Notes: generated from the letters alone by a model not told the origin. A stretch of 35,811 bases of DNA from an uncultured candidatus Brocadiaceae bacterium (GCA_964639345.1 CAZXDF010000014.1:1-35811), one strand, 5' to 3'; positions 13,579-34,305 are shown, counted from the first letter of the stretch. Program-made: numbers and translations.

Positions 13579-13903
13579 GAAGCTGATGAAGAAGGGCGAG
13601 ATGGTCCCCGGCGCGGTAGTACCGGGTGGGAGCATGGCGGGCCTGCACACGGGTTCCTGGCGCACCTACGCGCCGAGGACCGACTTCGAGAAGTGCACCC
13701 ACTGCCTGTTGTGCTGGATATATTGCCCGGACAGCGCGATCGAGGTCAAGGGCGGCAAGAAGCTCGGGACCAACTTCCAGTACTGCAAGGGCTGCGGTAT
13801 CTGCGCCAAGGAATGCCCCGCCGACGCCATCGAGATACAGCTCGAAAGCGAGATGGCCGACCGGGAAAAGGAAGACGAGCAGCCCCGGGAAAGGAAGGAT
13901 TGA
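13571..13903 (+). CDS. porD: Pyruvate:ferredoxin oxidoreductase delta subunit (2x[4Fe-4S])
   Basis: It has two cluster motifs, 'CTHCLLCWIYCP' and 'CKGCGICAKECP'. The GTG start at 13571 overlaps the porG stop, and the ATG at 13586 is an alternative. There is an acidic C-terminal tail. Confidence 0.85.
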   Translation: MAKKLMKKGEMVPGAVVPGGSMAGLHTGSWRTYAPRTDFEKCTHCLLCWIYCPDSAIEVKGGKKLGTNFQYCKGCGICAKECPADAIEIQLESEMADREKEDEQPRERKD

Positions 13904-13907
13904 CCCA

Positions 13908-15068
13908 ATGGGCGAAAGAGTGGCGTTGACCGGCAACGACTCGGCGGCCTATGCGCTGAAGCAGATCAACCCGGACGTCGTGGCTGCCTATCCGATCACC
14001 CCGCAGACGGAGATGATGCACAAGTTCGCCGAATACGTGGCCGACGGGGAGGTCGTCACCGAGTTCGTGCGGGTCGAGAGCGAGCACAGCGCGATGAGCG
14101 CGGTGGTCGGCGCGTCGCTGGCCGGGGCGCGCTGCTGCACCGCCACCAGCTCGGCCGGGCTGGCGCTGATGTGGGAAGTGCTCTACATCGCGGCAAGCTG
14201 CCGCTGCCCCATCATCATGCCCGTCGTCAACCGGGCGCTGAGCGCCCCGATCAACATCCACTGCGACCACAGCGACACGATGGGCGCGCGCGACGCGGGC
14301 TGGATTCAGCTCTACTCCGAGAACTGCCAGGAGGCCTACGACAACGTGCTCCAGGCCGTCCGCATCGCCGAGCACGCCGACGTCCGGCTGCCCGTCATGG
14401 TCACCCTCGACGGCTTCATCCTCAGCCACACCCTCGAGGGCCTCGAGGTGAACGATACCGAGGTCGCGAGGGACTTCATCGGCGAGTTCAAGCCAGAGCG
14501 CAGCCTCCTCGAGGTGGACGCGCCGGAGACCTTCGGCGCCTTCGCGCTCCAGAACTACTACTTCGAGTTCAAGAAGCAGCAGGTCGACGCTATGGAGAAC
14601 GCCCGCGGCGTTATCGCCGAGATCGGCGCCGAGTACAGGCAGCTGACCGGCCGCGCCTACGGGCACCTCGACCCATATCGGTGCAAGGACGCCGAGGTCA
14701 TCATCGTGGGCCTGGGATCGACGATGGGCACGGCCAAGGAGGCCGCCGATCAGGCGCGCGAGGAAGACGGCATCAAGGCCGGCGTCCTGAAGGTGCGCAC
14801 CTTCAGGCCGTTCCCGGGCGAGGAGATACGCAAGGCGCTTGGCCAGGCCGCGACGATCGGCGTGATGGACCGGGCGATTTCGTTCGGCCTGGGCGGGCCG
14901 CTTTATCATGAGGTGCGCTCGGCCTGCCGCGGCGCGTCCAGCCCGATGCTCAATTTCATCTACGGCCTGGGCGGGCGCGACCTGAGGCTGGAGGACGTGA
15001 GGGAAGTCTTCCGGACCCTCGCCAAGGCCGAAGACTGCGGCGTCGAATACATCGGGCTGAGGGAATAG
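13908..15068 (+). CDS. porA: Pyruvate:ferredoxin oxidoreductase alpha subunit
   Basis: I trimmed track ORF 13626..15068 to the ATG at 13908 (MGERVALTGNDSAAYALKQINPDVVAAYPITPQTE). Stop is TAG. Confidence 0.9.
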   Translation: MGERVALTGNDSAAYALKQINPDVVAAYPITPQTEMMHKFAEYVADGEVVTEFVRVESEHSAMSAVVGASLAGARCCTATSSAGLALMWEVLYIAASCRCPIIMPVVNRALSAPINIHCDHSDTMGARDAGWIQLYSENCQEAYDNVLQAVRIAEHADVRLPVMVTLDGFILSHTLEGLEVNDTEVARDFIGEFKPERSLLEVDAPETFGAFALQNYYFEFKKQQVDAMENARGVIAEIGAEYRQLTGRAYGHLDPYRCKDAEVIIVGLGSTMGTAKEAADQAREEDGIKAGVLKVRTFRPFPGEEIRKALGQAATIGVMDRAISFGLGGPLYHEVRSACRGASSPMLNFIYGLGGRDLRLEDVREVFRTLAKAEDCGVEYIGLRE

Positions 15069-15124: not shown

Positions 15125-16069
15125 ATGCCGACGACGAAACTCAAAGAATTGGGCGACTTCCCCGAACTGCTTTCGGGAGGTCACGCTGCCTGCCCCGGTT
15201 GCGCGGGGCCGATCATCCTGCGGCAGGCCCTGCTGGCCGCGCAGCAGGACGGCGCCAGTGTCGTCGTCAGCATCGCCACCGGCTGCATGGAGGTCAGCAC
15301 CACCCTGTACCCCAACTCCGCCTGGCGCGTCCCCCTGGTCCACAGCGCCTTCGAGAACGCCGCCGCCACCATCAGCGGCGCAGAGGCCGCATACCGCAGC
15401 CTCAAGAGGCAGGGCAAGGTCAAGGACGACATCCGTTTCATCGCCTTCGGAGGGGACGGCGGCACCTACGACATCGGCCTCCAGTCGCTGTCGGGAGCGC
15501 TCGAACGCGGCCACAACTTCACCTACATCTGCTACGACAACGAAGCCTACATGAACACCGGCATTCAGCGTTCTGGCGCCACCCCGAAGGGCGCGTTCAC
15601 CACGACCGCTCCGGCCGGCAAGGTGAGCTCCGGCAAGACGCAGGTCAAGAAGGACCTGACGGCCATCGTCGCCGCCCACGGCATACCGTACGTGGCGCAG
15701 GCAGCCCCGCATCGCACCCGCGACCTGATGCAAAAGGTCCAGAAGGCCGTCGCCATCGAAGGCCCGTGTTTCCTCAACATCCTCGCGCCCTGCCCGCGCG
15801 GGTGGCGCTACGAGCCCGCGGACACGATCCAGCTATGCAAGTTCGCCGCCGACATCTGCCTGTGGCCGCTGTATGAGATCGAGGACGGCAAGCTCAAGAT
15901 CAACTACAAGCCGCGCGAGAAAAAGCCCGTCGAAGAGTGGCTCAAGGGGCAGGGCCGCTTCAAGCACCTATTCAGCCCCAAGAACGAGCACCTCGTCGCC
16001 GAAATCCAGGCCGATATCGACCGCAGATGGGAAGCACTCCTCAAGCGCGAGGAAGACGACAAGAGCTAG
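15125..16069 (+). CDS. porB: Pyruvate:ferredoxin oxidoreductase beta subunit (TPP-binding)
   Basis: 'GHAACPGCAGPI' and the TPP motif 'FGGDGGTYDIGLQS...YDNEAYMNTG'. Stop is TAG. Confidence 0.9.
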   Translation: MPTTKLKELGDFPELLSGGHAACPGCAGPIILRQALLAAQQDGASVVVSIATGCMEVSTTLYPNSAWRVPLVHSAFENAAATISGAEAAYRSLKRQGKVKDDIRFIAFGGDGGTYDIGLQSLSGALERGHNFTYICYDNEAYMNTGIQRSGATPKGAFTTTAPAGKVSSGKTQVKKDLTAIVAAHGIPYVAQAAPHRTRDLMQKVQKAVAIEGPCFLNILAPCPRGWRYEPADTIQLCKFAADICLWPLYEIEDGKLKINYKPREKKPVEEWLKGQGRFKHLFSPKNEHLVAEIQADIDRRWEALLKREEDDKS

Positions 16070-16345: not shown

Positions 16346-17203
16346 ATGATGCGACATGGATGGCTCTTTCTGGTCTTGCCTGTTGCCGTCGCCGCACTGG
16401 GCGGATGCTCCGTGACAGGCTTGGAGCGGAGCGCCTCGGCAGGTTATGGTGCTCCTGCGGGCGAAGCAGAACCGGGTGAGACGGAACTTCGCGTGTGGAA
16501 ACCCAGCAAGAGTGTCAAGGTGATTCTGACCCCCTCGGAGCGTGAGAGCCAACCGGGTGGGATCCAGTGGATTGGAACGGAAGGCAGCACGTTATTGAGA
16601 ACCTGGAGTATCACGAGGTTCTTCGGTAGGCCCTGCCTGCTCGGCTCTTATCCCGACCAGTTAGTTGTGTTGCCGTATCTTGTGGGCGGGGGAACGGGAG
16701 CCGCCGAGTATGACTGGGTCGTCATATCTAGACTGGATGGCAAGCCGGCCTTGCGGGAGATGGGGCTTTGGAGGTATTGGTCTGTCTCCAAGGACTCGTA
16801 CGAGTTTAGACTGTCGCCTGCCTTAGCGGCTGTCGGCGCGGAGGTTCGCCAGACCGCTATCGAGTTTCTATACGTGGCGAGGCATGAGGGAGAGGCTGAC
16901 ATAATAGAGGGTACCCTCCTGCTGTGCTGCCCCAACGCCGAGGGAGCTTCTTGGCGGCTGTGTCCGCTGAGGCTGGAAGATGCATTGTCCTGTGTTGCGC
17001 TATTGGACTGCCGTCTTGATGCCGCCCGACATTGGGCCTCGGGAATCCTTGCAGTAATGGCACCCGATGAGACTGCAGCGCATCTCGAAACTGAACCCAA
17101 TTCGTCCGAAAAAGTAGAGAGAGCGCAGGCGCTCAGGCGTGCTTTGACCCGTTGGTACGCGGAGAAAGACCTTCGAGCGCGAAGCGGGCGTCGAGGGCCA
17201 TGA
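16346..17203 (+). CDS. Hypothetical lipoprotein (orphan, lower GC)
   Basis: The ATG at 16346 has GGGGGA upstream, and the signal peptide ends in 'AALGGC'. No family recognised. The 3' end overlaps the convergent acd gene by 71 nt. Confidence 0.5.
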   Translation: MMRHGWLFLVLPVAVAALGGCSVTGLERSASAGYGAPAGEAEPGETELRVWKPSKSVKVILTPSERESQPGGIQWIGTEGSTLLRTWSITRFFGRPCLLGSYPDQLVVLPYLVGGGTGAAEYDWVVISRLDGKPALREMGLWRYWSVSKDSYEFRLSPALAAVGAEVRQTAIEFLYVARHEGEADIIEGTLLLCCPNAEGASWRLCPLRLEDALSCVALLDCRLDAARHWASGILAVMAPDETAAHLETEPNSSEKVERAQALRRALTRWYAEKDLRARSGRRGP

Positions 17204-19259
17204 CGCCCTGGCCGCGCGGGAAGACGAGCAGAGGGTTAAGGTCGCATTCGGTGAGCTGCGGAAAACGGGCGGCAAGGTAACTCACGCGCAGTATGCAGTC
17301 CGCCAGGGCGTCCAGGTCGCCGGGCTCCCGCCCGCGGAAGCCCTTGAGCATGTCGCTACCCTTGATCTCGTCGATCATCTCCCGCGCATCCTCGGCCGTC
17401 AGGGGCGCCACGCGGAACGCCACGTCCTTCAGGAGCTCCACGTATATCCCTCCGAGCCCGAACATGACGAGCGGCCCGAACTGCGGGTCGCGGCTCATGC
17501 CCACAATCACCTCGGTGCCGCCCGTGACCATCTGCTGCACCAGCACGCCGTCGATCGCCGCGTCCGCCTTGTAGGCCCGCGCGCCTTCCATGATCTCGTC
17601 GTAGGCGGCCCGCACCTGCGTCTCGTCCGCCAGCCCCACCTTCACGCCCCCGGCGTCGGACTTGTGTAGGATGTCGTCGGAGGAGACCTTCATCACCACC
17701 GGATATCCGATCTGCGCGGCGGCCCGCACGGCAGCGTCCGCGCCCTCGGCCAGCACGCTCTCCGGCAGGGGCAGCCCGCACGCCTCCACAAGGCGGCCGG
17801 CGTGACGCTCACCGATGGTCGTCATGCCTCTCTCGGCCGCCTCGCCGAGCACCTGCTCGATCGCCGCCTCGTCGAACTCGAAAGCGGGCGGCTCCTGGGG
17901 CGTGGCCTCGGTCCACGTGCGAAAGCGATACATGGCGTCCAGGGCCGTGACGGCGCGCTCGGGGTGGATGTAGTTGGGCACTGACATGCGGTCGAGGATC
18001 TCGCACCCTTCCCCCGTGCTCAGGCTGCCCATGAAACAGGCGAGGACGGGCTTCTCGGTGCCGGCTGCCAGCTCTCCTATCGCCTCAGCCGTTGTCTCGA
18101 CCTCGGTGGTGGTCTGGGGGGTGAGGATCACGAGGAGCGCGTCCACGTTCTCATCCCCTATGGCAGCCTCGATCGCCACGCGATACATGGCCGCTTTGGC
18201 GTCCCCGAGCACGTCGATGGGGTTGTGGATGTTGGCGGCGGGTGGAAGCCTGGAGGCGAGGTATGATTCGGTTTTCTCGGCGAGCGCGGCCATCGTCAGG
18301 GCACACGACTCGATGGCGTCCGTGGTGAGGATGCCCGGCCCGCCGGCGTTGGTCACGATGGCGACGCGGTTGCCCTTCGGCGGCCCCTGGCGGGAGAAGC
18401 CAAGGGCGAAATCGAAGAAGGTGGTCACGTTGCGGGCCCTGACGACGCCGCACTGCGCGAAGGCGGCCTCGTAGGCCACGTCGGCCCCGGCGAGGCTGCC
18501 GGTCTGGCTGGATGCGGCGCGCGCGCCCGCAGCGGTGCGGCCGGATTTCAGCACGACCACCGGTTTCTTCTTCGTCACGCGGCCGGCGGCCGACATGAAC
18601 TTCGCCCCGTCGCTGATGCTCTCCACGTAGCCCAGGATGACCTCCGTGCTCTCGTCCTCGCCCAGGGCCTTGATCAGGTCGCTCTCGTCCACGTCCGCCT
18701 TGTTGCCGTAGCTGACGAAGCGCGATATGCCGACGTTCTCGCCGGCGAACACGTCCAGTACCGCGGTGCCGACCGCGCCGGACTGACTGAAGAACGACAC
18801 GTTGCCCGCCGGCGGCATTGTGGCGCTGAAGGAGGCGTTGAGGCCGGTCGACGGGCTGATCACGCCCAGGCAGTTGGGGCCGATGCAGCGCACGCCGTGC
18901 TCGGCGCAGCGGCGCCTAAGCTCGGCCTGAAGCCGGGCGCCTTCCTCGCCCGCTTCCTGAAACCCGGCGGAGATGACGATCACGCTGCTGCACCCCACAG
19001 CCGCGCACTGGCCGATCACGTCCGGCACGAACTTCGACGGGATCGCGATTACGGCCAGGTCGATACCCTTGCCGATGGCCTTCAGGTCGGCGTAGCACTT
19101 CAGCCCGAGCACCTCGTCGGCTTTCGGGTTCACCGGGTAGATCGGTCCCTCGAAACCGGCGTCGATGAGATTCTTGAGCGTGTCATGCCCCACCTTTCCG
19201 GGCGTGCGACTCGCGCCGACGACCGCAATGGAAGACGGTTGGAAGAAGTGCTCGAGCAT
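17133..19259 (-). CDS. acd: Acetyl-CoA synthetase (ADP-forming), fused alpha/beta (Acd)
   Basis: 708 aa. The CoA-binding N-terminus is 'SIAVVGASRTPGKVGH'. It has succinyl-CoA-synthetase-like ligase domains and a C-terminal ATP-grasp ('GYPVVMKVSSDDILHKSDAGGVKVGL'). Confidence 0.9.
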   Translation of the reverse strand: MLEHFFQPSSIAVVGASRTPGKVGHDTLKNLIDAGFEGPIYPVNPKADEVLGLKCYADLKAIGKGIDLAVIAIPSKFVPDVIGQCAAVGCSSVIVISAGFQEAGEEGARLQAELRRRCAEHGVRCIGPNCLGVISPSTGLNASFSATMPPAGNVSFFSQSGAVGTAVLDVFAGENVGISRFVSYGNKADVDESDLIKALGEDESTEVILGYVESISDGAKFMSAAGRVTKKKPVVVLKSGRTAAGARAASSQTGSLAGADVAYEAAFAQCGVVRARNVTTFFDFALGFSRQGPPKGNRVAIVTNAGGPGILTTDAIESCALTMAALAEKTESYLASRLPPAANIHNPIDVLGDAKAAMYRVAIEAAIGDENVDALLVILTPQTTTEVETTAEAIGELAAGTEKPVLACFMGSLSTGEGCEILDRMSVPNYIHPERAVTALDAMYRFRTWTEATPQEPPAFEFDEAAIEQVLGEAAERGMTTIGERHAGRLVEACGLPLPESVLAEGADAAVRAAAQIGYPVVMKVSSDDILHKSDAGGVKVGLADETQVRAAYDEIMEGARAYKADAAIDGVLVQQMVTGGTEVIVGMSRDPQFGPLVMFGLGGIYVELLKDVAFRVAPLTAEDAREMIDEIKGSDMLKGFRGREPGDLDALADCILRVSYLAARFPQLTECDLNPLLVFPRGQGVMALDARFALEGLSPRTNGSKHA

Positions 19260-23544: not shown

Positions 23545-23830
23545 ACATCCGACGAGTAACCGGGAGAGGCTGATTCCGTACGTAAGAAGGGCTGAAAAGA
23601 TTGGAGGGCGGGATCCTTCAATCCAATCCCACCTGTCAGACTCAGATCCGCTTCCAACCTCTTCAGCCCGACAACCAGTTTACCACATCTTGGCGAAAAA
23701 TCCACCCCTCCGGCAGATTTTTTTCGCTCGGCATGTGGCTTTCCCGCCCTCGCGGGCAATTTCGCTCTGCTGCTCACTCCGCGTAGCCGGATCCTGGCGT
23801 AAGGAGCGGCTCTGTTGAAAACCTCCCTCT

Positions 23831-23900
23831 GGGTAGCCCCCGGCGTCTCGCCGGGGGTGTCAGAACCGCCATGCGGCCGAGCGAGACGCCCGGCCTACCC
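23831..23900. repeat. REP-doublet (REPIN-like) palindromic element with GTAG/CTAC termini
   Basis: Sequence is GGGTAG-[CCCCCGGCG TCT CGCCGGGGG]-TGTCAGAACCGCCATGC-[GGCCGAGCG AGA CGCCCGGCC]-TACCC. The TCT/AGA loops match the 16116 element but the stem sequences differ. The spacer resembles the 5' part of repeats A and B. Confidence 0.6.
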
Positions 23901-24073
23901 AAACAGTGAGAAGGCGAGAACGGGTTCCCAACAGCAGTAAGGAGCGCAAATGGAGGGTGTAAAGGGGAGTTGCGCGTGAGAGCGATGCCCGGGGGGGCAA
24001 ACGGGTGCGATTTCGCTGCGCGGTGCGGGAATGTGGCACTCTTACCCCCTGGCAGGGCGCGACCGACATGGTG

Positions 24074-24102
24074 TTGACGGCCGGGCGCGCACAGGGTATG
24101 CT
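24074..24102 (+). promoter_or_regulatory. Candidate sigma70-like promoter upstream of the giant-protein locus (TTGACG-17-TATGCT)
   Basis: Motif match only. It would give a leader of about 200 nt or more containing small hairpins (CCGGGT..ACCCGG at about 24126-24144). Confidence 0.3.
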
Positions 24103-24379
24103 TGAGTCGCGGCCGGGGGGGCGAGCCGGGTCAGGGAAACCCGGGCGCGGGCTGCTCCACGTTTCTTGTGAACGAAAGTGGGCTCGGCGGCGTCTAACGG
24201 GATGATGATGGTCCCGGCAGACAGGAGGTACACGGGCGGACACCGGCAGAGCGGGGAGCTTCTGCTGATGACGGCCCTGCGGGCTGGAGGAGGGGGACTC
24301 ATGGCAGGACTTCGCCTTCGTTTCCGAGGCGCGCTACTCGGTCAGCGCACGGGAGCGCCACGCAACGGTCGAGGCGAGC

Positions 24380-25171
24380 TTGAAGTTCATCGCGGTCGAG
24401 GGGGGATGGCACGAGGTTCCCCTGATCCCTTCCGCGATCCCGCTTCGGTCGGTCGAGATTGGCGGGAGGAAGGCCTACGTCGAGCGGGGCCCCGAGCGCT
24501 ACGTGGGGCACTTCCACGGCAAGGGAGATTTCAGTATTCGTCTCGAGTTCGTGCTGGAGGTGGCGCAGCGGGGCCGCGAGCGCTCGATTGAACTGCCGCT
24601 TGCGCCCGCCGCCGGCTCGCGCGCGGAATTCCTGCTGGACGAGCCCGGCTACCGCGTCCGAACCACGCCCGAGGTGCCCATCGAGCTTTCCGCTGCGGCG
24701 GGCGGCACGCACGCAACGCTGCACGTCGGGGGCCTCGATTCCCTGACCGTCACCTGGCTTCCCGAGGAGATCGAGCCGGCGCCCGCGCCGGTGTTTGAAG
24801 CGACGGAACGCGGTATCATCGAACTGCGCGCGGGGGCTGCGCTGAGGGAATCCGAGTTCACCATCCAGGTGCGTCGTGGCGAACTGGCTTCTATGGACGT
24901 TGCCGTGCCGCCCGGCGTGGACGTGCTGAGCGTGCGCAGGAAGGAGCCTGCCTCCGAGCGCCGTGCCATGACCCCATCGGCGTTCACGCCGACGGCCGAC
25001 ATCGACGCCTGGCACATCGTGGAGCAGGCCGGAGAGCGCCTGATTCGCATGCGCCTCAGCAAACCGGTGCGCGGGGAGTTCATCTTCGCCATCGCCTCCG
25101 AGGAAGTGACCGGTGGGCCGGGAGAGGCGCTCATCCTGCGGCCCTTCCGAGTCGTGGGCGCGAGGCACTAG
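24380..25171 (+). CDS. Giant repeat envelope protein, copy 1, segment before in-frame TAG (N-terminal module + unit 1)
   Basis: This is the track ORF from the TTG at 24380. The frame is open from 24272, and similarity to copy 2 begins at about 24308. It ends at TAG 25169-25171. The 5' boundary is unresolved (see findings). Confidence 0.55.
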   Translation: MKFIAVEGGWHEVPLIPSAIPLRSVEIGGRKAYVERGPERYVGHFHGKGDFSIRLEFVLEVAQRGRERSIELPLAPAAGSRAEFLLDEPGYRVRTTPEVPIELSAAAGGTHATLHVGGLDSLTVTWLPEEIEPAPAPVFEATERGIIELRAGAALRESEFTIQVRRGELASMDVAVPPGVDVLSVRRKEPASERRAMTPSAFTPTADIDAWHIVEQAGERLIRMRLSKPVRGEFIFAIASEEVTGGPGEALILRPFRVVGARH

Positions 25172-25186
25172 GGCGGACGCCTTGTC

Positions 25187-28100
25187 GTGGCGTCGATGCC
25201 CAGCCTTCGCGTCATCGACACCGGCTCGACGGCCGCGCTCGCCCCCGTAACGGAGGAGCCCATCGCGTCCCGCCACGGCGCCCGGGTGCCGATCAAGCGC
25301 CTGGCTTTCCTGTATCACAGCCTGCCGATCGAGCTTCGCCTGAGGGTGGCGCCCGTGCGGCCGCAGGTCGTCGCCACGGCGGTCAGCCACGCGCGGCTCC
25401 AGGCCGGGCTGGTGGAGCTGCTCACCAGAATCAGCTATCGCATCGGGGACGCGCCGCTGGAGCGGCTGCGCATCGGGCTGGATGAGGGACTCATCGTCCT
25501 GGGCGTCTCGGGCAGGGACATACGGATGTGGCGCACGGAGGGCGACGTGCTGGAGGTGCGGCTCAGCAGGCCGGTGAGCGGCGATTACGAGCTTGCCGTG
25601 AACTGCGTCCAGCACCTGCGCAAGGTGGACGGCGTTCTCATCCCGCACGTTCGCGCCCTGGACGCGGAGAGAGAGTCCGGCGCCGTCGGCGTCTCGGCGG
25701 TCGATGAGGTTGCCCTGCTGCATCATCACTCCACGAAGTTCGTGCAGGTCGACGTGGAGGAGTTGCCGGGCTGGGTGAAGGCGCTGGGGCCGAAGCTCGC
25801 ATACGTCTACGATCAGCCGGGCGGCGTGCTCGCCGTCGAATCTTCCCTCATCAAGCCGGTGCTGCACGTGCGCGGATATGCGACGGCGAACGTGGGCGAG
25901 GGCGTCGTGGAGGAGGAGTGCGTGTTTGTCGCCGACGTGGAGAGGCGGCCGGTCTTCGGCTTCCGCCTCCGCATTCCGGCGGGCCTCACGCCCATCAGCC
26001 TGCTGGGCGAGGACGTCGCCGACTGGGAGTTTCATCCGGCCCGGCGGGCCCTCAGCGTTTCGCTGAAGCAGGGGCTCGTCGGCCGCACGCGGCTGCACGT
26101 GTTCTGCGAGCGACGCTGCGGGCTGGACGTTGCCAGCATACCCCTCGGCGGCGTTGCCGTGCTGGATGCGGACGACGTGTCGGGTTGGCTGGGAGTCGGC
26201 ACCGACGCGAACCTCGAGCTGGCGCCGGCCGCGGTCGAGGGCATGATCCCGATGGACATCAAGGACGTGCCGCCGCTGGTGGCGGCCGCCGGCAACCTGC
26301 GGCTTGCCTACCGCTGGGCGGGCGAAGAATGGCGCATGGGCTGCGTGACCCGGCCGGTGCGGCCCCGCCTCGAGGTTGAGACGCGGACGCGCCTGCTGTT
26401 CGGCACGGGGCGGATGCAGGCGCGTACGGAGATAGTATGCAACATCGCAAAAGCCACGCTTGAGGAGCTTCTCATCGCGCTGCCGCCGGGTGCCGTCAAC
26501 CCGCAGATAAGGGGCGAGAACATCCGGAGCCGCGAATTGACCGACGGTCTCTGGCGCATCGGGCTGGCAAGGCCCGTCACGGGCGAGTGGCGGCTGCGCG
26601 TGAGCTTCGAGCAGGTCGCCGACCCGCGCACGGGCGACCTCCGGTTCGCTGGCGTCAGGCTCCCGCAGGCCGAGCGGCAGGCCGGCGTGATCGGCGTATA
26701 TCTGGAGGACCCGCAGGTCGAGGTGAGCGTGTTGAACGCCGACGGCGCGGCCCGCACGCAGACCGCCCCGGACGTTGACGGCGGGGCGCACGCGTTCCTG
26801 GACGCCTACAGGTATTCCGACCCGGCCCGCACAATCGACTTCAAGATGAAGGGCCACGCCATGGTGCGCGGCGTGCAGCTCAGCGCGGAGAAGTGCAGCA
26901 TCGTGACCGTGGTCAAGGAGCGCGGGCAGGCCGTCAACTACATGACGTGCAGCGTGAAGAACGTCGGCGCCCAGTTCTTCCGGATGCGGCTGCCGCAGGG
27001 CGCGGACCTGTGGGGCGCCTACGTCCAGGGCAAGCCCGTGCGCCCCAACAGGCTCCCGGATGGCGACATTCTGATTCCGCTGCTGGAAGCGCCGCGCGGC
27101 AAGCCATTCGACCTGGCCGTCATATGGGCGGAACCGACGGGCAGGCTGGGGCTGGGCGGCTCGCTCGCGCTGGTCGGGCCCGAGCTTGGCCAGCCGGCGG
27201 AGGAGGTGGACTGGGAGGTGAACCTGCCGGAGCGCTACCAACTCGTGCGCGCGCGGGGCAACATGCGCCTCGAGCAGCGTAAGGCCTGGTATCGCGAGGG
27301 GCTGCCGGGAATCCTGTGGCAGCACGTGCGGCGGGCGTGGCCGGTCGTGAAGATTGTTCTGCTCGTGGCTGCGGGGCTTGTCGGGATCGCGCTGCTTTAC
27401 ATCATCGCCCGCGCGCTGCGCCGCCACATGGCCCGCGCAAGGGCGGTGTGGAAAGAGGCCGCTCCCGAGGCCGAGGCGAAGCGCCGCCCGATCCTTGGAG
27501 GGGCTGTGGGAGTCCTGATCATCGTGTTTATCGTGGCGGTGTTCGCCGCCATGCTGATGCCGGCTCTGAGCACGGCAAGGCACGAGGCACGAGAGGCATC
27601 CGCAATGAGCAACCTGCGTCAAACCGGCCTGGGCATGCTGATGTATGCGAACGACCACGGCGACAAACTTCCCCCCTCGCTGGACGTCCTGATAGAAGAA
27701 GGGTACCTAACCCGGAACGCGCCTGTCTCGCCGATGACGGGCGAGAGGTTCATCTATGACCCCACGGTGGAACTGACCGGCGACCTAGCGAGGAAGACGA
27801 TGGCGTGGGACCGTCGCGACCCGAAAGCGGACGGCCAAGCCGTGCTCTTCGCAGACGGCCACGTCGAATGGGTCAAGGCCGAACGTGGCGCCAAGGCGCT
27901 TCGGGGCGTTCCGCTTGGCGGCGTAGAGGGGTGGCGAGAGGACATCGGCGTGACGGCTTCGGGAGGCGTGAGCGTCGATGCATTCCCTGGGTATGAGAAT
28001 GACGCGGACATAGACGGCGCCGGGCGCCCCGACCGTTTGGAGGGTAGCGGCCCCGAGGCGGACTTGGACCTGTCGGGGCCGGCGGCGTCAGCGGAAGATG

Positions 28101-29179
28101 AGGAAGGCGCCAAAAGGATTCACAGTTACAACAAGGCACTGCAACTGGCCGACTCGTACCGAAAGCGGGGCGAATACAGGAAGGCCGAAGGCCAATACAG
28201 GCGGGCCCAGCGCCTGGCACCCGACGACACCCGCGCCAAACAGGGCCTCAGCCGCCTGGAAGAGCTACAGACCATCGCAGAGGACGGGGGAAAAGCGAAG
28301 ATGGCAGCAAAGCCGCCGGTATCGGGTATGCGGCCGCCGGCGCCGCAGGCACCCCCTGCCAAGCCCAAGCCGCGCTGGGAGACATATAGCGTCGGGAGCC
28401 TCATCGCGCAGGCCGGCCAACTGGAAGAAGCAGAAGGAGCCGACTGGGAGGATGACGTCGCAGAGACCGGTACTGAGCGCGGGATACTCGGCCTGGTCTC
28501 TGGCGAGATCAAGAACTTCGACTTTGCTGATGGCGGCAGGGCGGTGCTCGAGGGCGGTGACCTGGTCATCACCGGGCACGCAGAGGTAATCGATGAGGTG
28601 AAGCGTTCCGCGGCCGGGCTGCGGGGCAGGATGCTGGAGAGGACGCGGCAGATCACGGTGAAGAAACTGCAGCAGAAGGCGGAAAGTGCCGCAAAGCGCC
28701 GCGCAGCACTGCGGGATATGGCGCGGGCCAGCCAGCTCAAGACACGCGTCGGCGGCGGGACGATAGTGGGCAACCGCGCGGCGGGGGCCTTGCCGATCGA
28801 GATCGACTTCCCGCGCGTGGGCACGAGGCCGTATCCGTTCCACATGGATTTCGCGGGCACCTCGGTGGCGAGGATCGAGCTGACCTGCCTGCGGGTCGGC
28901 ACGGCGCTGACCGTGCAGGGGCTGATAGGCATCGCGGCCCTGGCGCTGATCGCCCTGACGGGCTGGCATCGCCCCCGGGCGGGGCTGGCGCTGGCCGTCG
29001 GGCTGGTGCTGCTGTCGAGTTTCGTCCTCAAGACCGGTGGCGAGGCCCCCAAACCCTACGCCGTCATGGCGCTTCTGGGGGCCTGCTTTGCGGTCCTGGT
29101 GCCACTTACGCGGCTGCTGGCTGTGGCAAGGCAGCGCGCATGGAATGCCATGGGGAATACGAACAGAGGGACACAATGA
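25187..29179 (+). CDS. Giant repeat envelope protein, copy 1, segment after TAG (units 2-5, TM pair, pseudopilin-like/TPR/secretin-N-like insert, C-terminal TM anchor)
   Basis: 1330-aa ORF in the same frame as 24380..25171, with strong GC3 bias. It has four ~165-aa units, two TM helices (about 27338-27570) and three C-terminal TM helices. Stop is TGA. Confidence 0.7.
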   Translation: MASMPSLRVIDTGSTAALAPVTEEPIASRHGARVPIKRLAFLYHSLPIELRLRVAPVRPQVVATAVSHARLQAGLVELLTRISYRIGDAPLERLRIGLDEGLIVLGVSGRDIRMWRTEGDVLEVRLSRPVSGDYELAVNCVQHLRKVDGVLIPHVRALDAERESGAVGVSAVDEVALLHHHSTKFVQVDVEELPGWVKALGPKLAYVYDQPGGVLAVESSLIKPVLHVRGYATANVGEGVVEEECVFVADVERRPVFGFRLRIPAGLTPISLLGEDVADWEFHPARRALSVSLKQGLVGRTRLHVFCERRCGLDVASIPLGGVAVLDADDVSGWLGVGTDANLELAPAAVEGMIPMDIKDVPPLVAAAGNLRLAYRWAGEEWRMGCVTRPVRPRLEVETRTRLLFGTGRMQARTEIVCNIAKATLEELLIALPPGAVNPQIRGENIRSRELTDGLWRIGLARPVTGEWRLRVSFEQVADPRTGDLRFAGVRLPQAERQAGVIGVYLEDPQVEVSVLNADGAARTQTAPDVDGGAHAFLDAYRYSDPARTIDFKMKGHAMVRGVQLSAEKCSIVTVVKERGQAVNYMTCSVKNVGAQFFRMRLPQGADLWGAYVQGKPVRPNRLPDGDILIPLLEAPRGKPFDLAVIWAEPTGRLGLGGSLALVGPELGQPAEEVDWEVNLPERYQLVRARGNMRLEQRKAWYREGLPGILWQHVRRAWPVVKIVLLVAAGLVGIALLYIIARALRRHMARARAVWKEAAPEAEAKRRPILGGAVGVLIIVFIVAVFAAMLMPALSTARHEAREASAMSNLRQTGLGMLMYANDHGDKLPPSLDVLIEEGYLTRNAPVSPMTGERFIYDPTVELTGDLARKTMAWDRRDPKADGQAVLFADGHVEWVKAERGAKALRGVPLGGVEGWREDIGVTASGGVSVDAFPGYENDADIDGAGRPDRLEGSGPEADLDLSGPAASAEDEEGAKRIHSYNKALQLADSYRKRGEYRKAEGQYRRAQRLAPDDTRAKQGLSRLEELQTIAEDGGKAKMAAKPPVSGMRPPAPQAPPAKPKPRWETYSVGSLIAQAGQLEEAEGADWEDDVAETGTERGILGLVSGEIKNFDFADGGRAVLEGGDLVITGHAEVIDEVKRSAAGLRGRMLERTRQITVKKLQQKAESAAKRRAALRDMARASQLKTRVGGGTIVGNRAAGALPIEIDFPRVGTRPYPFHMDFAGTSVARIELTCLRVGTALTVQGLIGIAALALIALTGWHRPRAGLALAVGLVLLSSFVLKTGGEAPKPYAVMALLGACFAVLVPLTRLLAVARQRAWNAMGNTNRGTQ
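27482..27871 (+). other. Embedded pseudopilin-like domain (prepilin-type hydrophobic helix + H-X9-DG/DUF1559-like end)
   Basis: 'RRPILGGAVGVLIIVFIVAVFAAMLMPALSTARHEAREASAMSNLRQTGLGMLMYANDHG ... VLFADGHVEWV'. This resembles PVC-type pseudopilins ('LLPALS.ARE.AR...C.NNLKQIGLA...Y' and a terminal 'DGHV' motif). It lacks the G/F-T-L-I-E cleavage/methylation site. Confidence 0.6.
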
Positions 29180-29190
29180 GGGAGCGAACG

Positions 29191-31671
29191 ATGAGCAAGA
29201 GGCACTGGTTGTTAGGAGTCGTGCTGGCGGCGATGCTGTGCGGCGGGCTGACGCGCGCCGCCGAGCAGCAGGCGGTATCGGCCGGCGATATTGACGAAGC
29301 CGATGTGGCGGGCGTCCCCGCTGCCCGGGCGGGCCTGGTTCTGACCCAGGCCCTCGCGGAGGGCGCGGTCGAGGATGGGCTGGCCAAGCTGCGCCTGACG
29401 CTCGATGCGCAGTCCTACAGCGACGGGGAACAGCGCGTTCTGCTGCTGCCCGCCGACGTGGCCGTGAGCGACTGGTCCGTCAAGAAGTCGCTGTTCGGTC
29501 CGAAGGCCTACGTCCGCCGCAGCGACCGCGGCGTGGAGTTCGTCATGGTGGGGGATGGCACGTGCCGGCTGCACCTGGACTTCGTGCTTGGGGTCGCGGA
29601 GCAGAAGTCCGTGCGCGCGGTCATACTGCCCATCGTCCCCGCCGTGGTGAGCACGACCCGCCTGAGAGTGCCGGGGACCGACCTGGAGTTCAGCACCGAC
29701 CCGAAGGCCACCGTGGAAACCCGCGCCCTGGCCGACGCGACGATCGTCACGGTCTACGGCGGCGAGGGCACCGTGGCCCTGAGCTGGAAGCCGAAGGTGC
29801 CGGAGAAGGTGCTCGAGGCGGTCGTCTTCGCCAGCCAGGCCATGCGACTTCGGCTGGGCGAGGGGCTCGTGAGGATCGACACGGCGATTGACTACACCAT
29901 CGTGCAGGGCAGCCTCAGCGGGCTCGAGGTCCGCTATCCGGCCGATTGCGCCCTGCTCAACATCGAGGGCGCGGACATCCGGACGTGGGACGTCTCGGAG
30001 CCGCAGGGCGCGGCGCCCAGGACGCTGAAGGTCTCCCTGATGGACGATGTGGAAGGGCACTACCGGCTGACCGTGAGCCTTGAGAAGGTCCTGCCGGAGC
30101 TGCGGGCCGAGTTCGACCTGTCGGCCATCGAGCCGCTGGGCGTCGTCAGGGAGAAGGGCCAGGTGGCGGTCATGGCGGTCAAGGGCATCAGCGTGGAGGC
30201 GGTGTCGCTGGCGAACATCAGCCACGTGGACGTGCGGGAGATGACGGTGCTGCCGGGGATGGCGCGGCAGGATGTGCGGCTGGGTTTCCGGTATCTGAAA
30301 CGCCCCTGGAGCCCGAGGCTGCGCACGGGGGAGGTGGTGGCCAAGACCTCGGTCGAAACCCTGACGACGGTCCGCGCCGGCATGGACACCATGCGTCTGC
30401 TCTCGGACCTGAACTACACCGTCCGGGACGCCGGCGTCTTTCAGTTCCGCGTGCGGCTGGACGAGGGACTGAAGCTGATCGACATCAACGGGGCCAACAT
30501 CAACAACTGGCAGATGGACGAAGCGGGGCGCGTGCTCACCGTGGCGCTGCGATCCAAGGCCGAGGGGCGGTACCGGCTCCAGATAGAGACCGAGATGGAC
30601 AAGCCGGCCGGTGAAGGGGCGGCAGTGCCGGCGGTGCAGGCGCTGGAGGTTGACCGGGCGACGGGCTACCTGGCCATCATCCCCGCGCCCGGGATGAAGG
30701 TGGAAACGGCCTCCCTGTCGGGCATAAGCCAGATCGACGTGAAGGAGCTGCCCGATGAGCTGCTCAAGCTCTCGCCGGCGCTCGCCTACCGCCACATCCG
30801 CCCCGGGTACGGGCTCGCCATCAACGTCACCGAGATTCAACCGGAGGTCCACGCCGAGGTTCAGACGGTCGCCATCCTGGACGAGCACGAGTTGAACCTC
30901 GACACCGAGATCCACTACTCCATCCGACGCGCGGGGATCTTTCAGCTCCGCGTGGCCATCCCGAAGGAGCTGCGCCGCACCAACATCGAGGGGCCGGACA
31001 TCGACGATACCTCGTGGGACGAGGAGCAGGGCATCCTCACGGTGAACCTCCGCTCGAAGGTGACGGGGGCCTACGTGCTGAAGATCGAGACCGAGAAGAC
31101 GCTGGCAGAGATCGGCGAGAGCATGGAAGTGCCGGTCATAAGCACTGCGGGCGTGCGCAAGGAGCGCGGGTTTCTCGCCGTCGTGACCAGGGCGAGCGTG
31201 CGGCTGAAGGCGGCCGAGGGCAAGCTGGTGGGGCTGGACGACGTGGCGGTGAGCGACCTGCCCCCGCAGATGCTGCGGCGCGCGGGGGAGGTGGCGATGG
31301 CGTTCAAGTACTTCGCCCAGCCCTGGGGCCTGGCGTTCGCCGTGGAGCGGATCGACCCTCGCGTGACGGCCGAGGTGTTCAACCTCATCTCGGTCGGCGA
31401 GAAGCTGGTGACGATCAGCGCGACCGTGCAGTACCGCATCCTCCACGCCGGCGTCGACCGGTTCGTGGTGAAGCTGCCGCCGGACGCTGAAGCCGTTGAC
31501 ATCGACGGTGACGCCATCAAGCGCCGCGAAGAGGGCAAGGACGAGGAGAAGGGCATCTGGACCGTCACGCTTCAGTCCAAGCGCACCGGCTCCTATACGC
31601 TCTACGTGAGCTTCGAGCACGAGCTTGCCGAAGACCAGGCCGTGTTCCCCTACGGGGGCCTCCAGGTGTAG
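29191..31671 (+). CDS. Giant repeat envelope protein, copy 2, segment before in-frame TAG (signal peptide, N-terminal module, units 1-4)
   Basis: The ATG at 29191 has GAGGGAG 7 nt upstream. The Sec-type signal peptide is 'MSKRHWLLGVVLAAMLCGGLTRAAEQ'. Unit openings are at about 30145, 30649 and 31156. It ends at TAG 31669-31671. Confidence 0.75.
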   Translation: MSKRHWLLGVVLAAMLCGGLTRAAEQQAVSAGDIDEADVAGVPAARAGLVLTQALAEGAVEDGLAKLRLTLDAQSYSDGEQRVLLLPADVAVSDWSVKKSLFGPKAYVRRSDRGVEFVMVGDGTCRLHLDFVLGVAEQKSVRAVILPIVPAVVSTTRLRVPGTDLEFSTDPKATVETRALADATIVTVYGGEGTVALSWKPKVPEKVLEAVVFASQAMRLRLGEGLVRIDTAIDYTIVQGSLSGLEVRYPADCALLNIEGADIRTWDVSEPQGAAPRTLKVSLMDDVEGHYRLTVSLEKVLPELRAEFDLSAIEPLGVVREKGQVAVMAVKGISVEAVSLANISHVDVREMTVLPGMARQDVRLGFRYLKRPWSPRLRTGEVVAKTSVETLTTVRAGMDTMRLLSDLNYTVRDAGVFQFRVRLDEGLKLIDINGANINNWQMDEAGRVLTVALRSKAEGRYRLQIETEMDKPAGEGAAVPAVQALEVDRATGYLAIIPAPGMKVETASLSGISQIDVKELPDELLKLSPALAYRHIRPGYGLAINVTEIQPEVHAEVQTVAILDEHELNLDTEIHYSIRRAGIFQLRVAIPKELRRTNIEGPDIDDTSWDEEQGILTVNLRSKVTGAYVLKIETEKTLAEIGESMEVPVISTAGVRKERGFLAVVTRASVRLKAAEGKLVGLDDVAVSDLPPQMLRRAGEVAMAFKYFAQPWGLAFAVERIDPRVTAEVFNLISVGEKLVTISATVQYRILHAGVDRFVVKLPPDAEAVDIDGDAIKRREEGKDEEKGIWTVTLQSKRTGSYTLYVSFEHELAEDQAVFPYGGLQV

Positions 31672-31719
31672 GAGGTCCAGCGCGAGACCGGGTACCTGGC
31701 CATCACGTCCCGGCCGGAC

Positions 31720-32910
31720 GTGGAGCTCGCGGTCCCGGACTCCGACGTCGAGGGCCTCACGCCCATAGACAGCCGCGAGATCCCAGCGAGCTACATGCGC
31801 GGCGTCACTCTGCCGGTGCTGCTGGCCTACCGCTACGTATCGCATCCGTACACGATCCGAATGGGCGCGATGCCTCACGCGGCGGCCGACGTCACCGTGG
31901 CCGTGGTGGAGAGCGCCCACCTGAGCACCATCATCACCGAAGAGGGCAACATGATCACCGACATGGCGTGCACGCTGCGCAACAGCCGCCAGCAGTACCT
32001 CCGCCTGAAGCTGCCCGAGAGGATCTGGCACGCCTTCGTGGACAACAAACCCGTCATGCCCCTGATCGACGGCGAGATAACCAAGATACCCGTCGCCCGG
32101 GCCGCTGGGAGCAGCGCCTCTTTCGTGGTGAGGCTGCGCTACAGCCAGGAGCGCGACTCGCTCGGACGGGTCGGCTCCATCCGGCTGGAATCGCCCTTCG
32201 AAGGGATCGACGTGATGAGGCTCGGCTGGAAGCTTTCGCTCCCCGACGGCTATGAGGTTGTGCGGGACCTGGGGAACATCCGTATGTTGGAGGACCCCCG
32301 CCTCCTGGAGGCCGACATCAAGGGGCTGAAGCCGGACATGGAGGTTCAGGTGCGCCTTGAGCGTGACCGGAGCATTCAGGAACAGGGAGGCGAGCAGTAC
32401 GAGTGGAACTGGCAAGCGCAGCGCAAGATACAGCAGGACGCCGGAGGCAAGGGCCGCCAGGTCGGCATCTACACCGGCAGCAAGCCTAGCCAGGGGAACG
32501 TCTTCGTATTCCAGAGCCTCATCCTGACCGGCGAAGAGGCGGCCTGGGTCGGGGGCCAGTATGTGAAAGGCTCCATGGCCATCCCGCTCAAGGGCGTCCT
32601 GGCGATCCTGGTGGCCGCTCTGTGCGGACTCGCCTGGCGTCGGCTGACCTGGCCGCCAGCGGGGCGGGTGGCCGTGCTGGCCGGGGCTGCCGTGGTCCTG
32701 CTCGGCGTGCGCACGCTTGCTGAAGGCGCCTACCGCAGCTACCTCACGACGGTCATCCTGTCCATGCTCGTCGTGGCTGCGGCGTTGGCGCTCTACACCG
32801 CCGGCACGTGGCTGCGCGAGGCATGGACGCGCCGGCGCATCGCCCGGGATGCAAAGGCGATCAGCCGCGAGCAGGCCGAACCGCCCGCAGCGCAGCCCGC
32901 GCCCGAGTAA
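31720..32910 (+). CDS. Giant repeat envelope protein, copy 2, segment after TAG (unit 5 + three-TM anchor)
   Basis: This ORF is in the same frame as 29191..31671. The first canonical start is the GTG at 31720. The 16 codons from 31672 ('EVQRETGYLAITSRPD') already match the unit-opening motif, so the real coding region probably begins at 31672. Stop is TAA. Confidence 0.65.
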   Translation: MELAVPDSDVEGLTPIDSREIPASYMRGVTLPVLLAYRYVSHPYTIRMGAMPHAAADVTVAVVESAHLSTIITEEGNMITDMACTLRNSRQQYLRLKLPERIWHAFVDNKPVMPLIDGEITKIPVARAAGSSASFVVRLRYSQERDSLGRVGSIRLESPFEGIDVMRLGWKLSLPDGYEVVRDLGNIRMLEDPRLLEADIKGLKPDMEVQVRLERDRSIQEQGGEQYEWNWQAQRKIQQDAGGKGRQVGIYTGSKPSQGNVFVFQSLILTGEEAAWVGGQYVKGSMAIPLKGVLAILVAALCGLAWRRLTWPPAGRVAVLAGAAVVLLGVRTLAEGAYRSYLTTVILSMLVVAAALALYTAGTWLREAWTRRRIARDAKAISREQAEPPAAQPAPE

Positions 32911-33054
32911 TCCGGGGCGGCGCGATCTGTCGTTCGCTTGGAGCAGGCCCGGAACCCGCCTATACTAATATGGGCTGGCACGGCCGGCCGCGCGACGGCC
33001 CCTGCCGGTGTTCGTTGTGATGCGCATTCTCCCCTGCTTACGATTGGTCATGCG

Positions 33055-34305
<1,251 letters not shown>

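Follow-up and report, generated by a model that had tools for sequence, protein, structure and literature searches.

The TAG at 31669-31671, which interrupts the reading frame of a long repeat-containing protein, is best explained by recent nonsense mutation in a two-gene cassette that this uncultured planctomycete population is apparently losing, a reading to which we assign a probability of roughly 80%. The interrupted gene is copy 2 (29191-32910). Together with copy 1, a tandem paralogue lying upstream at about 24275-29179, it is orthologous to a conserved gene pair coding for two giant proteins. A premature TAG would have arisen once in each gene, the simplest route being a C-to-T change that hit a CAG (Gln) codon. 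Since the codon at this site is a sense codon in relatives and the sister gene is broken in the same manner, recent inactivation is a more likely explanation than a special mode of decoding. Positions refer to the window, that is, the whole 35.8-kb stretch of DNA that was analysed, and the features of the cassette are listed in Table 1.

Table 1. Features of the interrupted two-gene cassette.
Feature	Position	Strand	Remarks
Copy 1 N-terminal fragment	24275..25168	+	homologous to unit 1 of orthologues; no start codon or signal peptide
Second in-frame TAG, copy 1	25169..25171	+	context ...FRVVGARH*GGRLVVASMP...
Copy 1 remainder	25172..29179	+	listed ORF 25187-29179, 1330 aa
Copy 2 pre-stop part	29191..31668	+	signal peptide and four repeated beta-rich units, 826 codons
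Stem-loop over TAG	31656..31678	+	8 bp, 7-nt loop; TAG at junction of loop and 3' arm
In-frame TAG in copy 2	31669-31671	+	aligned codon is CAG in L013
Sixteen codons, EVQRETGYLAITSRPD, no canonical start	31672..31719	+	most conserved motif of the repeat unit
Copy 2 post-stop ORF	31720..32910	+	396 aa; last unit, conserved C-terminal module, transmembrane helices

The TAG splits a single frame, and the two halves of copy 2 jointly match intact orthologues of 1,230-1,310 aa from end to end. We confirmed both open reading frames of the original prediction, the 843-aa frame ending at the TAG (29140-31671) and, in the same frame, the 396-aa frame that opens with a GTG. The former is a mechanical ORF that begins ahead of ATG 29191; this ATG (MSKRHW..., followed by a signal peptide and preceded by GAGGGAG) is the more likely start and gives a pre-stop product of 826 aa. 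This part has a GC3 of 0.91 and corresponds to residues 1 to about 830 of the intact orthologues P0005, P0007 and L013. The original prediction also held that the sixteen codons following the TAG behave as coding sequence, which is borne out by the paralogue, aligning without a gap across the stop (635 aa, E 1e-62), and by the orthologues, which match both flanks as a single stretch. The peptide context across the stop reads GGLQV-x-EVQRETGYLAITSR, where x is the TAG position. In a structure model of copy 2, the sixteen codons form a strand (model residues 202-211), and the stop site falls into a short loop between strands of adjoining modules (residues 193-201, mean pLDDT 93) rather than into a free linker.

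The stop is a genuine feature of the DNA of this organism and not an assembly artefact. The same TAG-bearing sequence is present in GCA_035092285.1, GCA_030743675.1 and the JGI metagenome 3300035206 (the copy 2 TAG being found in L001, L002 and L017), and a per-run Logan assembly of SRR26502663 contains the same break, namely an 826-aa product translating to the query followed by a separate downstream gene (L020). The TAG is thus carried by five assemblies, the window and four others, which represent two haplotypes differing by 3 SNPs in 12 kb (0.025% of sites). Both stops of the cassette occur in every assembly available, and an intact allele was not seen.

Relatives of copy 2 were recovered by an exhaustive phmmer search, which returned 3,293 homologues, the full-length ones spanning both sides of the site as one stretch; a word-indexed protein search gave only C-terminal fragments that do not span it, and a scan of genome_contigs with a single protein found no relative. 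For the construction of search patterns a four-sequence alignment (A3) was usable, whereas alignments A1 and A2 were too divergent. Aligning orthologues at the TAG, as had been suggested, revealed a sense codon in every orthologue examined: CAG in L013, GTC in L003 and CCG in L004. At the protein level the residue is V in P0004, P in P0005 and Q in L013, and a sense residue is present in each of the 29 aligned homologues, the column being Leu in 17 of the 29 more distant ones. Neither in these 29 proteins nor in about 13 intact family genes (L003-L013) is there a stop at this site. L013 is one of the two closest orthologues, and since it has CAG, a single C-to-T change explains the TAG in the window. 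The original prediction had named sense codons in orthologues together with polymorphic reads as a sign of mutation or error; the first is what we found, whereas all five assemblies carry TAG. The gene pair is distributed in Planctomycetota, with a copy-2-like gene also present in a Lentisphaeria MAG, and intact pairs with signal peptides were seen in L004/L006, L009 and L010. The products, of about 1,250 and 1,650 aa, consist of repeated beta-sandwich units and are predicted to be secreted and membrane-anchored. When both halves of copy 2 and copy 1 were scanned against Pfam and NCBIfam, no family exceeded the threshold. Searching PDB sequences with a family profile matched only GPCRs, in the transmembrane region, and these matches were rejected as spurious.

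Over its whole length copy 1 can be aligned with the intact L004 orthologue of 1665 aa, and it contains an in-frame TAG of its own. The original account of this DNA does not mention this second stop. The frame of the N-terminal fragment is open from 24275, with a listed ORF from TTG 24380 (263 aa), and the remainder of the gene codes for repeated units, internal transmembrane segments, a TPR region, C-terminal transmembrane helices and a prepilin-like H-X9-DG/DUF1559-like stretch. The column of the copy 1 TAG has R in L004 and Q in L009 and L010 (two of the three orthologues), and the same TAG is found in L001 and L018. Both stops of the cassette are TAG, lie near repeat-unit junctions, are followed by G and probably replace Gln. 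In addition, copy 1 seems to have lost its start codon and signal peptide. No hydrophobic stretch was present upstream of copy 1 in any frame between 23900 and 24400, and the frames of 23545-24500 showed no convincing similarity to orthologue N-termini; a frameshifted signal peptide ahead of copy 1 was ruled out by these scans.

All lesions that we found in the window are confined to this cassette. Across its roughly 2,870 codons no additional stop or frameshift is present, a search of the window for pairs of segments in the same frame picked out no other coding frame, and about 20 other ORFs of the window gave normal domain matches to Pfam or NCBIfam. In relative-rate tests, amino-acid change in the window lineage was no faster than in orthologues for either gene. 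For the post-TAG part of copy 2, changes unique to the window and to P0004 numbered 32 versus 42 and 28 versus 35; against L004, the counts were 108 versus 144 and 103 versus 108 for the whole of copy 2, and 137 versus 191 and 113 versus 138 for the whole of copy 1. This absence of acceleration, which extends to the sequence downstream of the copy 2 stop, fits a very recent stop and equally a gene that is still expressed and selected. Single-base nonsense changes in these genes give TAG in 66-68% of cases, CAG-to-TAG alone accounting for 19%, so that a random nonsense hit would be expected to yield TAG. Among other family members, L005 has an in-frame TAG at a different place and L015 a frameshift. 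L005 had been looked at only as an apparently truncated product and L015 was picked in the same way. An in-frame TAG as a recurrent, TAG-specific trait of the family was rejected, as an unbiased scan of L003-L013 found none, the next truncated product (L015) turned out to be a frameshift and two others simply end at a contig edge.

A very recent nonsense mutation, which the original prediction listed as its third option, is therefore the best fit to the sense codons of the orthologues, with CAG in L013 one transition away, and to the unaccelerated downstream sequence. Because the TAG in copy 2 is premature, ribosomes would normally stop there and produce an 826-aa secreted fragment lacking the membrane anchor, while the downstream 412 codons would be made rarely or never. 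The cassette as a whole may be undergoing inactivation, and its lesions are presumably young, being common to the two haplotypes with neither gene having gathered extra amino-acid changes or further stops. That translation ends at the TAG and that the cassette is non-functional is what we infer from the sequence. As in ordinary nonsense-mutated (split) genes or young pseudogenes of bacteria, which are annotated as two adjacent same-frame ORFs, a single premature stop interrupts a gene that is contiguous in orthologues, the stop being one transition away from the ancestral codon; a functionally linked neighbour carries a second lesion and has lost its start and signal peptide, and two hypothetical proteins are reported by the gene caller. 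Unlike in typical young pseudogenes, there is here no measurable relaxation of constraint and no intact allele in any sample, and loss of function is an interpretation.

The strongest alternative, albeit an unlikely one, is that UAG is read by a near-cognate tRNA-Gln or by a supE-like tRNA(CUA) encoded elsewhere, with both copies being read through; a soluble 826-aa form and a full-length anchored form of copy 2, the products expected under this reading, are equally unlikely. In E. coli K-12 laboratory strains, supE-type amber suppression is due to a tRNA-Gln with a CUA anticodon. The present case resembles it in that UAG occupies positions where relatives have Gln and in that normal TAG-terminated genes coexist with in-frame TAGs. 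A Gln-inserting suppressor would leave just such a pattern: one in-frame stop in each of two paralogues, TAG in both cases, near a repeat-unit junction, followed by G and in a column that has Gln in relatives, although each of these coincidences is individually unremarkable. The lack of acceleration and of further lesions downstream of either stop, the presence of the stops in two haplotypes and five assemblies, and the TAG in a third family member, L005, are also in line with suppression. However, L005 was chosen for its truncated look and L015, chosen likewise, has a frameshift, and random nonsense mutation in these genes would produce TAG more often than not. The missing signal peptide of copy 1 could not be repaired by readthrough, and the stop is conserved in no orthologue. 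Unlike in supE strains, the in-frame TAGs are found in one cassette, which makes up about 26% of the window codons, an arrangement with a chance of about 0.07 under genome-wide suppression, and the 35.8-kb window contains no tRNA gene, of a suppressor or otherwise. TAG is also not avoided as a terminator. Of the window's roughly 26 genes, 6 end in TAG, and for five of these the C-terminus is complete by profile; as originally predicted, icd, porA, porB and tatA are among the five, and so is a biotin/lipoyl-domain gene, whereas the 'rbr' gene named alongside them was not found. That a Brocadiia-class population decodes UAG as Gln to an appreciable extent, by a supE-like tRNA or a leaky RF1, and produces both giant genes in two forms seems to us more doubtful still. 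If it did, CAG-to-TAG changes would be nearly neutral and each giant gene would be expressed both as a soluble truncated product and as a full-length one anchored in the membrane; only in the case of such natural amber suppression would the cassette have a bearing on genetic-code flexibility in free-living bacteria.

Programmed local readthrough, the headline of the original prediction, gained no positive support. Programmed readthrough yields two isoforms in the A1 protein of phage Q-beta and in MuLV gag-pol, and these stops are conserved among relatives and often have a defined downstream context or structure. The frame of copy 2 could in principle give a short and a C-terminally extended form in the same way, but its stop is confined to a single population, and TAG serves as an ordinary terminator here. 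A small hairpin had been described at the TAG, and its CCTCC (31659-31663) and GGAGG (31671-31675) are indeed present; the stem is longer than described, pairing 31656-31663 with 31671-31678. Its folding energy does not exceed chance (MFE -38.8 kcal/mol versus -36.9 +/- 3.4 for shuffled sequences, z = -0.57), 61 of 200 shuffled sequences folding at least as well, as expected from a GC content of 67%.

A further possibility, which we also regard as improbable, is a tolerated gene split, in which the downstream part is re-initiated at GTG 31720, or at CTG 31696 or ATC 31702, and the two polypeptides cooperate. The downstream ORF is intact and unaccelerated, and NCBI annotates the parts as separate genes, the post-stop ORF of copy 2 being MDP6439111.1. 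In copy 1, a GTG without a Shine-Dalgarno (SD) motif and an ATG follow 15 nt and 24 nt after the stop, distances compatible with termination-reinitiation. In copy 2, by contrast, the first NTG is 46 nt away, a long gap for coupling. GTG 31720 has no SD-like motif upstream, unlike many genes of the window, which commonly carry GGAG or GAGG 6-12 nt ahead of the start. The SD-like GGAGG at the stop sits inside the stem-loop and is not followed by an NTG at 5-13 nt in any frame, which leaves re-initiation as originally proposed with weak support at best. Scans of the cassette for promoters and terminators gave nothing above shuffled expectation. With a start at 31720 the conserved RETGYLA strand would be missing and the product would lack a signal peptide, though the orthologous region is extracytoplasmic and lies upstream of the membrane anchor. 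The position of the stop in the short, confidently modelled loop also speaks against a split, and none of the approximately 13 intact family genes is naturally split at this point.

That the TAG is an error of sequencing or assembly, or a minority allele that ended up in the consensus, is very improbable: the source is a metagenome-assembled genome and the sequences compared are consensus sequences, but the TAG is identical in three other assemblies, the gene break recurs in the Logan assembly, two haplotypes share it, and a substitution in a non-repetitive context is not typical of assembly error. Insertion of pyrrolysine or another dedicated amino acid, for which the sole point is that the codon is UAG, can practically be dismissed, as the protein is no methylamine methyltransferase and lacks any methyltransferase domain, the residue at the site varies among orthologues (V, P, Q, L and others), TAG is freely used as a terminator, and literature searches, judged by titles and abstracts, returned no report of a pyrrolysine system or of amber readthrough in Planctomycetota; four papers mention both pyrrolysine and Planctomycetota, none of them jointly in title or abstract.

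The main consequence concerns annotation: MDP6439111.1 and MDP6439112.1 are fragments of one gene, as are MDP6438663.1 and MDP6438664.1, and the annotation should flag them as interrupted instead of listing four separate hypothetical proteins. With regard to structure, a Foldseek search with the modelled units flanking the stop gave 6s7o_E (E 7.6e-11) and yeast Ost1 (6ezn_A, E 6e-8) as best matches. The luminal beta-sandwich domains of Ribophorin I/Ost1, which belong to the eukaryotic oligosaccharyltransferase, share with the cassette proteins an architecture of beta-rich extracytoplasmic domains followed by a membrane anchor. With TM-scores of about 0.25, an identity of 8-12% and no match to Pfam Ribophorin_I, this is a resemblance in fold only, and the bacterial proteins form much longer tandem arrays.

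The ORF listed from 29140 terminates at an in-frame TAG in copy 2, the downstream member of a tandem pair of paralogous genes (the cassette), and a second ORF follows in the same frame, both as originally predicted. The contig (35.8 kb, G+C ~67%) derives from a metagenome-assembled 'Candidatus Brocadiia bacterium' (Planctomycetota). The two ORFs are separated by 16 codons reading EVQRETGYLAITSRPD. Copy 2 likely starts at an internal ATG, which is preceded by GAGGGAG and opens a signal peptide (MSKRHWLLGVV...); from there, 826 aa lie ahead of the TAG. The prediction that the sequence past the TAG is coding is confirmed by the alignment of copy 1 with copy 2, which crosses the TAG over 635 aa (26% identity, E 1e-62) and is ungapped at the site, and by contiguous full-length homologues: an exhaustive phmmer search with a TAG-spanning query returned 3,293 homologues, and full-length proteins of 1,230-1,310 aa (P0005, P0007-P0020) matched both flanks as a single stretch. 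None of the Pfam, NCBIfam and PDB sequence families covers the copy 2 protein, nor is there a Pfam or NCBIfam model for the whole family.

Positions of the features discussed (window coordinates unless a locus is named)
Feature	Position	Remark
2-oxoacid:ferredoxin oxidoreductase subunits	13626-15068; 15125-16069	
ADP-forming acetyl-CoA synthetase-like gene	17133-19259	minus strand
Stretch after hisD	23545-24380	~830 nt, non-coding by appearance
Copy 1, frame homologous to N-terminus	opens at 24275	directly after two stops
Copy 1, first ORF	24380-25171	TTG start, 263 aa
Copy 1, TAG	25169-25171	
Copy 1, second ORF	25187-29179	same frame
Copy 1, prepilin-like segment	~27550-27890	ORF residues ~790-900
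Copy 1, TPR match	~28140-28260	
Copy 2, likely start	29191	ATG
Copy 2, hairpin stem	31656-31663 with 31671-31678	8 bp, 7-nt loop
Copy 2, TAG	31669-31671	
Copy 2, downstream ORF	31720-32910	GTG start, 396 aa
icd, listed ORF	32938-34305	TTG start
icd, probable start	near 33055	
Contig end of GCA_035092285.1 in icd	33768-33786	L001:12049-12067
TAG in homologue L005	L005:704-706	
Frameshift in orthologue L015	L015:5400-5500	

The TAG is real. The same sequence including the stop is present in GCA_035092285.1 (12 kb, 3 mismatches), GCA_030743675.1 (3.6 kb, 1 mismatch) and two contigs of JGI metagenome 3300035206 that are 100% identical to the window. The Logan per-run assembly of SRR26502663 holds the 826-aa product of the second haplotype, with the downstream gene called on its own, and thus shows the same break, so at least two haplotypes carry the stop. 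An assembly artefact, considered in the original prediction, is not borne out, and together with pyrrolysine we regard it as very unlikely. The two haplotypes differ by three substitutions in 12 kb, all within the cassette (two non-synonymous, one synonymous), which are too few for a selection test. The final 19 bases of the GCA_035092285.1 contig differ sharply inside icd (9 mismatches), which looks like a strain junction or a chimeric contig end.

All relatives examined have a sense codon in the TAG column. In the metagenome contig SDBU01025374.1 (L013), GCC CAG GAC stands where the window has GTG TAG GAG, and the aligned codon is GTC in P0004/L003 and CCG in P0005/L004. Leu occupies the column in 17 of 29 aligned homologues, the rest having V, P, Q, K, I, E, F or D. 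The nearest relatives share 64% (L013) and 67% (P0004) identity with the window before the stop, and 56% and 54% after it. The simplest history is one C-to-T transition from CAG.

Copy 1 is also damaged. Its two ORFs, divided by a TAG (...FRVVGARH*GGRLVVASMP...), when taken together match the intact orthologue in L004 (1,665 aa) over the full length (953 bits). L004 has R in the TAG column, the L009 and L010 orthologues have Q, and a CAG-to-TAG change is plausible here too. The three orthologues have a clear N-terminal signal peptide; in the window, copy 1 has no canonical start in frame before the TTG and no signal peptide in any frame, and a hydrophobic stretch is absent from all frames of 23900-24400. 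With the two TAGs and this loss of start and signal peptide, the cassette carries three lesions, and none was found elsewhere in the window. The copy-1-like and copy-2-like pair is intact in L004/L006, L009 and L010.

We propose, with a probability of about 80%, that recent nonsense mutations have struck a two-gene cassette on its way out of this population. Ribosomes would terminate at the copy 2 TAG, giving an 826-aa secreted fragment that lacks the membrane anchor, and the 412 codons past the TAG would be a still pristine remnant. Relative-rate counts revealed no excess of amino-acid change in the window lineage for either copy, which suggests that the stops are very recent or tolerated. 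Window-unique versus other-unique changes were 32 vs 42 (outgroup P0005) and 28 vs 35 (P0007) for copy 2 after the TAG, compared with P0004. Against L004, they were 137 vs 191 (outgroup L009) and 113 vs 138 (L010) for the whole of copy 1, and 108 vs 144 and 103 vs 108, respectively, for the whole of copy 2. The C-terminal part evolves faster in every pair compared, and the window is not special in this respect.

The alternatives to inactivation draw on the fact that decay is not measurable, that an intact allele was not seen and that Gln and TAG coincide at both sites. Leaky readthrough or a Gln-inserting suppressor at UAG is nevertheless unlikely, as the stop is kept in no orthologue, the copy 1 signal-peptide loss is beyond repair by readthrough and TAG is freely used as a terminator in the window. 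It ends 6 of ~26 genes passing a composition filter, among them icd, where the profile is matched to position 416 of 417, and porA, porB, tatA and a biotin/lipoyl-domain gene at complete C-termini; 'rbr', also named as a TAG-terminated gene in the original prediction, was not found among the ORFs scanned. Moreover, both in-frame TAGs fall within the cassette, which comprises ~26% of window codons (chance ~0.07 if suppression were genome-wide). The CCTCC and GGAGG motifs are located as predicted, but the hairpin they belong to lends no support to readthrough, since shuffled sequence folds as well (-38.8 vs -36.9 +/- 3.4 kcal/mol, z = -0.57). An ARAGORN scan of the window detected no tRNA genes.

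A functional split with re-initiation downstream of the TAG is still less probable. Many window genes have GGAG/GAGG 6-12 nt ahead of the start codon, and nothing similar lies at this distance from the GTG of the downstream ORF. The GGAGG overlapping the TAG is SD-like in sequence, but an SD role is not supported, as neither ATG, GTG nor TTG occurs in any frame at 5-13 nt beyond it; the motif is just what the successive codons TAG-GAG-G spell.

That both stops are TAG is not by itself informative: 66-68% of the single-base nonsense changes possible in these G+C-rich genes give TAG, CAG-to-TAG alone accounting for 19%. A 35%-identical homologue from another organism and a different metagenome (L005; JGI 3300037225, Ga0395714_016403), chosen only for its truncated-looking product, has an in-frame TAG (GCC TAG GAA) at another place, near the end of the first unit (...YSLALA*EQALE...), where its relative P0017 has Met. 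In the next gene examined for a truncated-looking product, the copy-2 orthologue L015 (JGI 3300063140, Ga0598258_0000887), a frameshift in ...DYS-K-AGIF..., close to an AAAGGG run, splits 574-aa and 640-aa ORFs; L015 is a genuine pseudogene, or else the frameshift is an indel introduced by assembly. An in-frame TAG as a family trait was rejected, as L015 has a frameshift and an unbiased scan of ~13 genes recovered by homology (L003-L013) found no internal stops. The family consists of very long genes that are now and then disrupted, and TAG is not the specific cause.

An AlphaFold model (mb0e76860b741) of copy 2 residues 630-1075, built with 27 homologues, is almost entirely beta-strand (mean pLDDT 85.8), and the repeat units are predicted to fold as beta-sandwich modules. 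The TAG falls in a confidently placed short loop (model residues 193-201, mean pLDDT 93), with the final strand of one module (189-192) on one side and the following module's conserved RETGYLAIT strand (202-211) on the other. The top PDB match was to the luminal domains of ribophorin I/Ost1 of the eukaryotic oligosaccharyltransferase (E 7.6e-11, TM-score just ~0.25), followed by the M1 aminopeptidase N-domain, also with a low TM-score. Several Planctomycetota MAGs share the conserved tandem pair, and L007, from a Lentisphaeria MAG, has a copy-2-like gene. Many homologues are 2,100-2,600 aa long with the conserved module at either end, pointing to fusion or duplication of the pair.

The context genes, including tatA, hisD and icd, are all intact. 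In the listed icd ORF, the match to the isocitrate dehydrogenase profile starts only at residue 49, and the icd product in another assembly has 416 aa, hence the start probably lies further downstream. Copy 1 contains weak, below-threshold matches to a TPR repeat and to an N-terminal segment of prepilin-like type with DUF1559/H-X9-DG (...MPALSTARHEAREASAMSNLRQ... LFADGHVEWV). The stretch is also conserved in the L004 orthologue, and the giant copy 1 protein is an odd setting for a pseudopilin-like module.
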